From the sequence record PZ154895.1: a DNA stretch of 64,000 nt. One strand, written 5' to 3'. The notes under the pieces were generated by a model. The model saw only the letters and a program-made list of their open reading frames with translations, was not told the origin of the DNA and made no database searches. The DNA is from a phage. The translations under genes and the position numbers were made by a program. Shown here piece after piece: positions 24,281 through 27,902 of the stretch. Each line of letters begins with the position of its first letter. The first letter of the stretch is position 1.

Positions 24281-24304
24281 AGTCTCCTTCGGGAGACTTT
24301 TTTC
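24281..24304 (+). terminator. rho-independent terminator
   Basis: agtctcc-TTCG-ggagact followed by T-run. Confidence 0.7.
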
Positions 24305-24371: not shown

Positions 24372-24560
24372 ATGAAAATTGAAGCACTTAATCAAGAAGG
24401 AAATATCTACGTCATCATTAATGGTGATTTTTTCGTCGACATGGATGAAGTTACCAGTGAAGAACTTGAAGAACTTCTTAAGAAACGTTATGATATGTGT
24501 GATGAAGCTGCAACTCATATGGCGTGTGCAATATTCTCTCTTTCATATGTGGTGGAATAA
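24372..24560 (+). CDS. hypothetical acidic protein
   Basis: 62 aa from ATG 24372 with SD GAGGAGAA. Confidence 0.45.
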
Positions 24561-24763
24561 TGATTAGTATAGAACAAGCAGATAAAATTAAAGAATTGGT
24601 AGCTTTAATTCGCAAAGCAGACGAGGAACTTAGTGACTTTGCTTGGTTTTCGGCAGGCATTGCAAATAAAGGCGCTGAAGAACTTGAAGCTAAAGTTGAT
24701 AATGCTGTAGAAGCTTTAGATATGTTTCTTGATGAAATTATCGATCATAATACGAGAGTTTAA
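24560..24763 (+). CDS. hypothetical protein
   Basis: 67 aa, TAATG coupling. Confidence 0.45.
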   Translation: MISIEQADKIKELVALIRKADEELSDFAWFSAGIANKGAEELEAKVDNAVEALDMFLDEIIDHNTRV

Positions 24764-24765
24764 GT

Positions 24766-24960
24766 ATGCTAACACGTGAACAGTTTGAAAAAATCATTAA
24801 ATTAGCACGTGATATTGAAATAGATTCATACCAATTGGCAGTTGAGCATTGTGAAGGATATTCATACGATGGTATAGAAGCAGCTAAAAAGGATTTGGAT
24901 AAATCCAAAGCTAAGTTAGTTCAATATCTTGAAATGATTAGGTGGAATAATGAAAACTGA
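24766..24960 (+). CDS. hypothetical protein
   Basis: 64 aa. Confidence 0.45.
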   Translation: MLTREQFEKIIKLARDIEIDSYQLAVEHCEGYSYDGIEAAKKDLDKSKAKLVQYLEMIRWNNEN

Positions 24961-25123
24961 AAAGCAGATGTTTTTAATGAAGCTAATTGAAGAATATGCT
25001 AATGCAGTTTCTGACTATGAGTGTTCTTCTCGGGAAAGAGGTACAGCTTTCGCAAAGGAAGAAATGAAAATCATGGTTGATGCTCACACAAAGCTTCAGA
25101 ATTTTATTGAAAACGTCATTTAA
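24950..25123 (+). CDS. hypothetical small protein (not in ORF track, under 60 aa)
   Basis: 57-codon ORF overlapping upstream stop. Confidence 0.35.
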   Translation: MKTEKQMFLMKLIEEYANAVSDYECSSRERGTAFAKEEMKIMVDAHTKLQNFIENVI

Positions 25124-25290
25124 TGGTTTACAAGTTGGCAAGGTTATGGTATAGTAATCTTGTCAACTGCCAAGGAGAAGAGAATGAAAGTTTTGTTTGT
25201 TGTGTATGTGATGATTCAATATAATTACCCGATGTTTACTTATAATCTGGTGAACAACATTATTGATATTATTCAAAGGAGTATGTAATT

Positions 25291-25848
25291 GTGGGTGAGT
25301 CGAAGAGAATCAATATGAAACGATTAGTATTAGAAGTTAGTCCGCTTTTTGGTGAATTGGCTATAGAAAAAGTAAATAACATGTATCGTTTGACACAAGA
25401 AGACGATATGCTGTATTTTACGCCTAGTGAAATCATTCATTTAACCCAAATTGAATATCCTTATACTGATAAAATAGTAAGCATCAATGATGAGCACAAA
25501 ATTCATTTTTATTCTTCATGCCCAGGATTTAATATTAACAGTGAGTCAATGTGTTTATCAGTTATCCATTGGGATAGTTTTATAGCTAAGATTAAATATT
25601 TTTATTATTCTAATGAAAGAAAACATAGTTTAAAATGGCTTAAAAATTGCAATGCTATTATTACTAACGCTTGCAATCAGAATGATGAAACTCTTTTAAA
25701 TGTATCAAAATGTTATGAAGAGGGAGATGTCTTAACTATTCGTCAAATTGACGATTTTCGATCACATATTGTTACATTTACCAAAGACGAAGCTATTGCG
25801 CTAAAGACTTATCTTGATTCTGTCATTCCAACTATGATTTCAAAGTGA
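25291..25848 (+). CDS. hypothetical protein, paralog A (shared C-terminal motif)
   Basis: 185 aa; C-terminus DEAIALKTYLDSVIPTM similar to next ORF; GTG start with SD AAGGAG. Confidence 0.5.
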   Translation: MGESKRINMKRLVLEVSPLFGELAIEKVNNMYRLTQEDDMLYFTPSEIIHLTQIEYPYTDKIVSINDEHKIHFYSSCPGFNINSESMCLSVIHWDSFIAKIKYFYYSNERKHSLKWLKNCNAIITNACNQNDETLLNVSKCYEEGDVLTIRQIDDFRSHIVTFTKDEAIALKTYLDSVIPTMISK

Positions 25849-25854
25849 GGAAAT

Positions 25855-26376
25855 ATGTTTATTTCAAGTGAAAGCGGTTTAATTCGTGTTGAATTTAAAA
25901 ATGACATCTTCCTTATTCAAGGAGATGATATTATTAAAATGAGTTATGACGAAATCAAGAAAATTTGTCATGCTCTTGAAAGCCATGGAAAAGTAAATGC
26001 TACTATCGATATAGGTGATTTATGGGTGACACTTTATGAAGTATCCGAAGGATTTAACATTGAAGATGAAAATAACATCTTAGCTATTGATAAAAGAAGT
26101 GATTTGTTTGATGTGTTAAAAGTTTATGAACAGTCAAACGGTGGAAGAAAAGCTGCATTGATTTATCAAAAACCACATTCATGTGGAACTGCTTCAATCA
26201 TTTCAAATATTGAAGATGAAACTGATACTTATATGTGTGTTTTAAAGGCTGGTGGTGACCGTCATCCGGATTTTATTTCTATTCGTCAAAACAATGGAGA
26301 AATTTCATTATCAAAATCAGAAGCTGAAGCTATGATTAAGTATTTAACAACTGTTACACCTTCAATGAAAGGATAA
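25855..26376 (+). CDS. hypothetical protein, paralog B (shared C-terminal motif)
   Basis: 173 aa; C-terminus SEAEAMIKYLTTVTPSM. Confidence 0.5.
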   Translation: MFISSESGLIRVEFKNDIFLIQGDDIIKMSYDEIKKICHALESHGKVNATIDIGDLWVTLYEVSEGFNIEDENNILAIDKRSDLFDVLKVYEQSNGGRKAALIYQKPHSCGTASIISNIEDETDTYMCVLKAGGDRHPDFISIRQNNGEISLSKSEAEAMIKYLTTVTPSMKG

Positions 26377-26378
26377 TT

Positions 26379-26840
26379 ATGATTATTAATGAAAGCTCTT
26401 GGCACTATAAATTATTCAAAATGTTTAATGATGAATGGAAACGACCTAAGACACTGTGCGCGTATTTTTGGTCTATTGTTATTCCTACATTTTTCGTTTC
26501 TTTTTTCGGATGTACTATACTCGCAGGTCTAACTATCATCTGTGCAGAAATCATACAGAAATGGCTTATTTTTGGTAGTTTATGGACTCTTATTCCATCA
26601 GCATTTATACTTGCCATTTTGCTTGTTTTACTTATTATTGGTTCATTTGTTATTCCTGCACAACTGCGTGAAAAATATAAAGATTATAAATGGAAAAAGG
26701 ATTATGCTTTACATGTAGAAAATATTGATAGGGCGTATAAAGGTTTACCTCCTATTCAACCTAAGAAATCTATTATCGTCGAATTTTTAAAAGCGCGTAA
26801 AGCTAAAGTATGTCCTGTTATTGAATATAAGGCTGAATGA
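26379..26840 (+). CDS. membrane protein
   Basis: 153 aa with three hydrophobic helices, basic C-terminal tail. Confidence 0.5.
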   Translation: MIINESSWHYKLFKMFNDEWKRPKTLCAYFWSIVIPTFFVSFFGCTILAGLTIICAEIIQKWLIFGSLWTLIPSAFILAILLVLLIIGSFVIPAQLREKYKDYKWKKDYALHVENIDRAYKGLPPIQPKKSIIVEFLKARKAKVCPVIEYKAE

Positions 26841-27850
26841 TGAAAACAGTAATGAAAAGCTATTTTGGTAGTCATCTTTATGGAACTTCTACTCCAGAAT
26901 CTGATGTAGATTTTAAAGAAATCTTTGTTCCTCCTGCTCGCGATATTCTTATCGGAAATGTTAAAGAGCATATGAGTAAAAACACTAACAACACATCATC
27001 TAAAAACACTAAAGATGATATTGACCATGAACTATACAGTCTTAAGTATTTCTTTAAATTAGCAGCAGATGGTGAAACTGTAGCATTGGATATGCTCCAC
27101 ACTCCACCTGAGTTAGTGGTTAAATCTGATTTGCCTGATGTATGGAAGTTTATTCAAGACAATCGTTCTCGTTTTTATACGACTAACATGAAATCCTATT
27201 TAGGATATGTTCGCAAGCAAGCTTCTAAATATGGTGTTAAGGGTTCTCGTTTGGCCGCATTGCGTGATGTATTGAAAGTAGTTAATCAAATCCCTGATCA
27301 GTGGGTTGATTACCAAGAAGACGGTTCCATTAAGCAGCGTCGCACTAAAGTTGAAGATATTAAGCATCGTCTTCCAGAAAACGAGTTCTGTGAATGGGTG
27401 TTCCACAATCATGAGAAAACAGGCCCACAAACGTTCTATACTGTGTTGGGTCGTAAATATCAGACAACTCTTTCTCTTATTGAGCTTAAGCAGTCTTTGA
27501 ATAAACTTGATGCCGAATACGGTGAACGCGCTCGTAAGGCTGAAGCTAATGAGGGCATTGACTGGAAAGCTTTGAGTCATGCTTGTCGTGGTGGACTCCA
27601 ACTATTGGAAATTTACAAAACTGGTGACTTGGTTTATCCACTTAAAGATGCTCCATTTATTCTCGACGTGAAGTTGGGTAAACATCCATTTAAAACTGTT
27701 CAAGAGTTTTTGGAAGATGTGGTCGATCAAGTAGAAGCAGCATCCATTGAAGCTTCTAAGAACGGTATGCAGCAAAAAGTAGACATGGGTTTCTGGGATG
27801 ACTTCCTTGAGAGGGTTTATCTTGAAAACCACCGAAGTTATTATAAATGA
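26837..27850 (+). CDS. Pol-beta superfamily nucleotidyltransferase-like protein
   Basis: 337 aa; N-terminal hGS..G(x5)SDxDh motif (FGSHLYGTSTPESDVDF); strong terminator downstream. Confidence 0.6.
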   Translation: MMKTVMKSYFGSHLYGTSTPESDVDFKEIFVPPARDILIGNVKEHMSKNTNNTSSKNTKDDIDHELYSLKYFFKLAADGETVALDMLHTPPELVVKSDLPDVWKFIQDNRSRFYTTNMKSYLGYVRKQASKYGVKGSRLAALRDVLKVVNQIPDQWVDYQEDGSIKQRRTKVEDIKHRLPENEFCEWVFHNHEKTGPQTFYTVLGRKYQTTLSLIELKQSLNKLDAEYGERARKAEANEGIDWKALSHACRGGLQLLEIYKTGDLVYPLKDAPFILDVKLGKHPFKTVQEFLEDVVDQVEAASIEASKNGMQQKVDMGFWDDFLERVYLENHRSYYK

Positions 27851-27852
27851 TA

Positions 27853-27879
27853 GGGAGCCTTCGGGCTCCCTTTTTTTTT
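27853..27879 (+). terminator. rho-independent terminator
   Basis: gggagcc-TTCG-ggctccc followed by nine T. Confidence 0.8.
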
Positions 27880-27902
27880 GTTTAAAATGACGTCACAAAG
27901 TT

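Follow-up and report, generated by a model that had tools for sequence, protein, structure and literature searches.

Tandem MobD.1-family paralogs in the early region of a T4-like phage, each with three predicted PC4/PUR-like repeats

The mobD.1 locus and its neighbours

The window analysed here, a 64,000-nucleotide stretch of phage DNA (PZ154895.1), represents the Tequatrovirus rI–nrdC early region, with its + strand opposite to the T4 map. Hundreds of Tequatrovirus (T4-like) genomes match the 1.9-kb region around the two genes of interest, hereafter A and B, at 97-99% identity. On the + strand, the gene order reads tk, rI.1, rI, rI.-1, mobD.5 to mobD.2, A, B, membrane protein, and nrdC.11, and the locus is colinear with the rI - mobD.x - nrdC.11 region of T4, ime09, GEP001, NBEco003, APCEc01, and VR26. 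A consensus scan located a TG-extended promoter-like site 5′ of mobD.2, A, and B (gGTTTACA-17-TATAGT, 10/12 match; 25127..25155, + strand), which resembles the T4 early-promoter consensus. It precedes a mobD.2 homolog of 34 aa (25184..25288, + strand), whose translation is nearly identical to T4 MobD.2 and for which no Pfam match was obtained. Directly upstream lie mobD.4, mobD.3, and mobD.2a (24560-25123), themselves three tandem paralogs, all assigned to Pfam DUF7438 (E 4e-16, 1.5e-17, and 3.7e-15, respectively).

ORF A (25291..25848, + strand), called 'mobD.1a' in phage ime09, is the ortholog of T4 MobD.1, which we take to be UniProt Y05I (PF24449 + PF24448; PHROG 1502). There are two start candidates for A. 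GTG at 25291 has AAGGAG 8 nt upstream, lies 2 nt past the mobD.2 stop, and is replaced by ATG in homologs; the alternative, ATG at 25315, is the start of A in the GenBank annotation of relatives. The N-domain of A (predicted repeats 1 and 2) covers ~25324-25614 and its C-domain (predicted repeat 3) ~25627-25836, the protein ending in the tail IVTFTKDEAIALKTYLDSVIPTMISK (25768..25845). ORF B (25855..26376, + strand), the tandem paralog named 'mobD.1' in ime09, has its N-domain at ~25858-26139, its C-domain at ~26158-26367, and the tail EISLSKSEAEAMIKYLTTVTPSMKG at 26299..26373. These ORF coordinates and tail sequences agree exactly with the first-pass annotation, which had singled out the pair for its related C-termini.

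The gene directly 3′ of B (26379..26840, + strand) encodes an RB69ORF104c-like membrane protein of ~150 aa (phrog_944, E 3e-49), in which an alignment of six loci revealed the motifs SWH, LCxYFW, and EFxKARKxKxCP. It had been described as a three-helix membrane protein; its nature and position are borne out, but the figure of three is not established, as hydropathy places the hydrophobic region at residues 25-98, with room for 2-4 helices. The last gene of the unit, nrdC.11 (26837..27850, + strand), encodes an RlaP-like nucleotidyltransferase (Pfam RlaP, E 3.6e-11; phrog_388, E 7e-137). An intrinsic-terminator-like hairpin followed by a T-run, found by scan at 27852..27871 (+ strand), closes the unit; a matching hairpin lies upstream at 24281-24298, and both sites are annotated as terminators in phage JB75. 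A sub-threshold Rfam match to L20_leader (31.7 bits against a gathering score of 58.7; 27723-27886), which overlaps the terminator hairpin at nrdC.11, is probably a chance one. In every T4-like lineage examined, the membrane protein stands directly 3′ of the repeat-3-bearing gene, and in most of them NrdC.11 comes next. The placement of A/B, the membrane protein, and NrdC.11 between a promoter-like site and terminator-like hairpins suggests that they constitute a functional module.

A-type genes in GenBank/RefSeq relatives (e.g., GEP001, HY01, NBG2) widely appear as 'molybdopterin-guanine dinucleotide biosynthesis protein MobD', apparently an error that spread from the T4 name mobD.x, and their NrdC.10/11 neighbours are variously labelled 'thioredoxin'.

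Full-length paralogy, the shared tail, and the wider family

A and B are full-length tandem paralogs within the known, Pfam-listed T4 MobD.1 family. Both carry, in N-then-C order, PF24449 (T4_y05I_N; E 1.1e-38, 132.3 bits for A and E 8.6e-33, 113.4 bits for B) and PF24448 (T4_y05I_C; E 6e-21, 75.0 bits and E 1.8e-23, 83.1 bits, respectively), exceeding the Pfam cut-offs of 24.9 and 27 for the two families. Furthermore, phrog_1502 matches both proteins from end to end (E 4.6e-80 for A, 1.1e-66 for B), and an hhalign comparison of A-clade with B-clade profiles returned a probability of 97.5% (E 6e-12, 160 columns). With the last 30 residues removed, the bodies still align with z-scores of 6.6 (local) and 7.2 (global), and none of 2,000 shuffles scored as high. 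Hence the paralog pair reported at first pass is genuine. The accompanying remark that the bodies differ is right as far as identity goes (just 19% between the N-domains) but wrong as to homology (z≈7, shared Pfam domains), and the picture of divergent N-terminal domains under a shared module has to be abandoned, both proteins being full-length two-domain members with PF24449 and PF24448.

BLASTP with composition adjustment reported no match between A and B. This failure is an issue of sensitivity, which permutation and profile methods resolved: identity between the two proteins rises from 19% in the N-domain to 27% in the body of the C-domain and 35% in the tail, and because of this gradient only the tail is visible by eye while BLASTP stays blank. 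An HMM scan of all six-frame ORFs of the window detected no third MobD.1-family paralog; nrdC.8, which is similar in size, falls outside the family. Neither A nor B matched the PADLOC and NCBIfam models, which were searched for anti-phage defence and counter-defence families.

Aligned with an offset of one residue, the last 25 residues of A and B share nine identities and reach a BLOSUM62 score of 39, which none of 20,000 end-anchored shuffles attained (maximum 31); the best 25-mer score anywhere in A and B was matched by 11 of 5,000 shuffles. The tail similarity is thus beyond chance by permutation, as had been claimed. It could in principle be a by-product of recent gene conversion between the neighbours, given that tandem copies can exchange sequence and that a natural A/B fusion exists. 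However, the tail DNA of A and B is 51% identical, with 9 of 25 third positions identical and five of nine codons identical at conserved residues, which argues for conservation at the protein level and against a recent conversion. Moreover, the motif persists in distant genera with different codons. Orthologs from Mosigvirus (…DKDEAVALKAYLDSIIPTLK), Gaprivervirus (…AKDELKVLVKYLNTVIPTMNA), and Tegunavirus keep the tail despite many synonymous DNA differences, indicating purifying selection, and the stand-alone C-domain proteins described below keep it as well, so the expected conservation among orthologs is found. We therefore give practically no weight to chance or gene conversion as the source of the similarity.

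Among seven divergent full-length family proteins, the tail is the most conserved block, with the motif h-T/S-K-x-E-A-x-A-L/M-x-x-Y-L-x-x-V-x-P-x-M. In the predicted model of B, it corresponds to strand E148-153 and helix H154-167 of repeat 3 (DSSP). The tail of A was mapped, through alignment to the model of B and with the help of a per-block conservation profile, to the closing strand and helix of repeat 3 plus an IPTM cap. Residues A157, L/M160, Y163, L164, and V167 line a single side of the helix, with P169 and M171 after it. In the model originally offered, a short C-terminal targeting or interaction tag sits on two unrelated N-terminal domains. The tail is indeed the best-conserved segment and, with BLASTP blank, the sole similarity that meets the eye. 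Yet the N-domains are homologous by Pfam, body alignment, and hhalign, and the tail, rather than a free tag, is predicted to be integral to a folded domain of ~70 residues, which ends in this β-strand and α-helix. In addition, no protein was found that bears the tail on a different N-terminal fold, P0078 being merely an N-truncated relative. A tag of this kind is very improbable. What does behave as a C-terminal module is the ~70-aa C-domain, which occurs as stand-alone genes, and not the 20-aa tail. The 'common interaction' suggested for the tail motif is plausible.

Phage records with a B-type gene (at least 80% identity) number 434, and those with an A-type gene, whichever its allele, number 729. 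A HMMER scan of 1.84 billion representative proteins yielded just 25 matches, so the family is narrow; the long multi-stretch matches P0059, P0061, P0062, and P0065 were left out, without inspection, as probable repeat artefacts. T4-like phages that infect Klebsiella, Yersinia, Serratia, and Salmonella have the C-domain as a stand-alone gene, which is always followed by the same membrane protein and, in most lineages, by the nucleotidyltransferase NrdC.11. Their products, of 65-87 aa, end in …(F/L)TKxEAxALvxYLNSVIPTMK, fHe-Yen9-01 gp119 (74 aa) being an example. In SEA1-type phages, two C-domain-only genes (78 aa and 76 aa, the second at 23.4 bits, just under the Pfam threshold) stand in tandem before the same membrane protein. 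Salmonella phage SEA1 itself holds, twice, a cassette of Phage_tudor (PF24144), C-domain-only y05I gene(s), and the membrane protein (L008/L009 2652-3960 and 4873-5987), and it is the first copy that carries both tandem genes.

Recombination has left its marks on the locus. The alternative A allele of NBEco003/Sf22-type Tequatroviruses is ~47% identical to A with an identical tail. Selection as the reason for this identity was rejected: in a sliding comparison with NBEco003, DNA identity jumps from ~55% to 100% at 25750..25780, inside the tail codons, so a mosaic recombination junction accounts for the shared tail, and this case does not count as separate evidence for selection. Just ahead of this junction lies a perfect inverted repeat, TCGTCAAATTGACGA (hairpin 25740-25754). 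In the natural A/B fusion mentioned above (P0011, 179 aa, six metagenomic contigs), the switch from the N-part of A to the C-part of B comes after 'NDET'. A 9-nt direct repeat, GATGAAACT, is present in A (25684-25692) and B (26215-26223) and is likely the deletion junction of this fusion. The fused gene (loci L014-L016) is followed, as usual, by the membrane protein and NrdC.11. A 210-aa protein on a 2.4-kb metagenomic contig (P0050) combines the first ~50 residues of A with the C-terminal part of NrdC.11, implying a ~2-kb deletion of most of A, B, and the membrane gene.

Predicted fold, pairing, and possible function

The AF2 model of B (pLDDT 84.9, 34-sequence alignment) consists of three ββββα units: repeat 1 with strands 2-29 and helix 31-43, repeat 2 with strands 49-78 and helix 81-94, and repeat 3 with strands 100-153 and helix 154-167. 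The C-domain modelled alone reached a pLDDT of 78.9. The predicted models show the ββββα repeat topology of the PC4-like superfamily, with two repeats making up one domain. Their nearest structural matches were Pur-alpha, MRP1/2, Whirly p24/StWhy2, PC4/Sub1, and YdbC; SsgA/SsgB and the KhtT N-domain were also among the top matches, and single-repeat PC4/PUR proteins matched at lower Z. At the level of sequence, none of the PUR, PC4, and Whirly Pfam families matched A or B at E≤1, and a PDB sequence search with full-length and C-domain profiles gave noise, with none at E≤0.1; Foldseek against the PDB returned no significant match. Each protein is predicted to contain three ββββα repeats of PC4/PUR/Whirly-like fold, an assignment that comes from predicted models based on shallow alignments (34 and 20 sequences). 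The profiles of repeat 1 and repeat 3 match each other (87.6% probability, E 3.5e-6), LtQedDxixi..ei of repeat 1 aligning with IrQxddxVtFTKxEAxAL of repeat 3. This match indicates that the tail motif is one copy of an internal repeat. The Pfam family DUF7189 (65-71 aa; L011 2491-2688, L006 2276-2491) looks like a stand-alone repeat 1 (…ITLQQENDMICLTAEQVEVLY…), and residues 16-38 of B (25900-25968) match it below threshold at E 2.4e-4.

A PC4-like domain comprises two ββββα units that pack against one another through swapped helices; in Pur-alpha, repeats I-II constitute an intramolecular domain and repeat III an intermolecular one (PMC7549692). From the predicted Pur-alpha-like three-repeat layout of the MobD.1 family, we infer that the tail helix is the pairing surface. 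The best explanation overall, with a probability of roughly 0.6, is that A and B are MobD.1-family paralogs with three PC4/PUR-like repeats that pair through repeat 3. Repeats 1 and 2 would form an intramolecular 'type I' domain, and repeat 3 would be a lone half-domain, of the kind seen in Pur-alpha repeat III, PC4/Sub1, and Borrelia Pur-alpha, whose fold is completed by pairing with a second copy. Repeat 3 would owe its closing strand and its amphipathic helix to the tail, and on this proposal the tail is the most constrained segment because it contributes the hydrophobic core and the pairing surface of the half-domain. A and B may form homo- and/or A-B heterodimers in this way, which would bring two acidic type I domains together. 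Dimerisation via repeat 3 is the most likely arrangement; as for the ligand, nucleic acid is one candidate, and in view of the acidity a protein, or a partner that itself binds nucleic acid, is another. SEA1-type phages, too, have repeat-3-bearing genes in tandem pairs. T4 has neither B nor the membrane protein beside A, so an A-B heterodimer cannot be obligatory.

The charge of these proteins makes nucleic-acid binding doubtful. A has a pI of 5.5 and a net charge of -6, B a pI of 4.8 and a net charge of -10, and homologs go down to -20, a strongly negative charge across the family; the conserved turn and strand motifs (QEDD, NIExE) are acidic as well. In contrast, PC4, MRP1/2, and Whirly, the nucleic-acid-binding members of the fold, are basic. 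SsgA/SsgB and the KhtT N-domain, both among the top structural matches, use the same fold for protein-protein interactions. Since the family is acidic and the fold serves such roles in SsgA/SsgB, we find it conceivable but doubtful that the family is an ssDNA/RNA-binding transcription or replication factor in which the tail is part of a nucleic-acid-binding PC4-like domain. That reading does have several points behind it: Pur-alpha, MRP1/2, Whirly p24/StWhy2, PC4/Sub1, and YdbC are described as binders in PDB titles or the PC4 review, the Pfam label reads 'putative transcription factor', the UniRef name agrees with it, and phage T5 has a PC4 homolog (PMC7549692).

A more far-reaching reading takes the MobD.1 family to be a phage-specific acidic offshoot of PC4/PUR proteins, in which the tandem repeat-3 units heterodimerise (type II). 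The partners would be A with B, or the two C-domain-only proteins in SEA1-type phages, and the complex would mimic nucleic acid or serve as an adaptor, acting jointly with the membrane protein and NrdC.11 as an early host-takeover or counter-defence module. We consider this unlikely; if true, it would make the family the first reported outside Pur-alpha with type I and type II PC4-like domains, according to the PC4 review. Quite unlikely, too, is a docking role, in which the membrane protein encoded downstream, and perhaps NrdC.11, would bind to repeat 3 and its tail. Much as KhtT is linked to the KhtU antiporter by its N-domain, soluble A/B might regulate, or localise to, the membrane protein. 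However, T4 MobD.1 is present without the membrane protein, and synteny in a colinear phage region is weak evidence of physical contact. Besides, our search of the literature on KhtT did not find this role of its N-domain.

A and B are real but fairly ordinary paralogs with an unexpected predicted fold, and novelty is limited to the fold reading (Pur-alpha-like type I + type II, acidic) and the conserved link to the membrane protein. A T4 family labelled 'hypothetical' or mislabelled MobD thereby gains a testable architecture of three predicted PC4/PUR-like repeats, the last of which is the probable pairing module. If pairing is confirmed, it would also show how the T-even hyperplastic region assembles proteins from single ββββα units, of which the DUF7189-like repeat 1, the stand-alone y05I_C, and the natural A/B fusions are examples. 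Apart from dispensability and the site of the mobD insertion, our search of the literature on y05I, mobD.1, and nrdC.11 brought up nothing on function. Loss of the T4 fragment nrdC.11-mobD.3 was observed in viable genome-reduced mutants (PMC9825161); as mobD.1 lies within this fragment and has no known phenotype, its practical impact is limited.

Comparison with known systems

T4 MobD.1, the ortholog of A, occupies the same locus between mobD.2 and nrdC.11, and B has the same two domains. T4 has one MobD.1 copy, followed by the HNH homing-endonuclease gene mobD, and lacks B, whereas the present phage, like most Tequatroviruses, has two tandem copies and the membrane protein without mobD. The position of mobD within the module varies: in T4 (L003 7430-8209) it stands where B and the membrane gene would be, and in VR26 it separates the membrane gene from nrdC.11 (L006 3526-4290).

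Whirly proteins and MRP1-MRP2, like the SsgA/SsgB-like proteins, are type I representatives of a Whirly-like fold with no sequence matches to A or B. Whirly proteins are tetramers with a KGKAAL motif, which is absent from the translations of A and B, and SsgA-like proteins are actinomycete cell-division proteins. The KhtT N-domain (PDB 7agw/7agv) shows 15% identity, and A and B are devoid of the RCK_C domain; the parallel of a membrane partner is one of analogy alone. Among type II proteins, PC4/Sub1, YdbC, Borrelia Pur-alpha, and the PC4-like protein of T5 have no sequence relationship to A and B, and the phage proteins studied here lack their basic character. Pur-alpha (PUR repeats I-III; PDB 3k44, 5fgo, 8chw) has the same three-repeat arrangement as that predicted for the MobD.1 family. 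A review names Pur-alpha as the sole reported protein that combines the intramolecular and intermolecular arrangements (PMC7549692). If pairing through repeat 3 is confirmed, the MobD.1 family would be the second example, after Pur-alpha, of both kinds of PC4-like domain in one protein.
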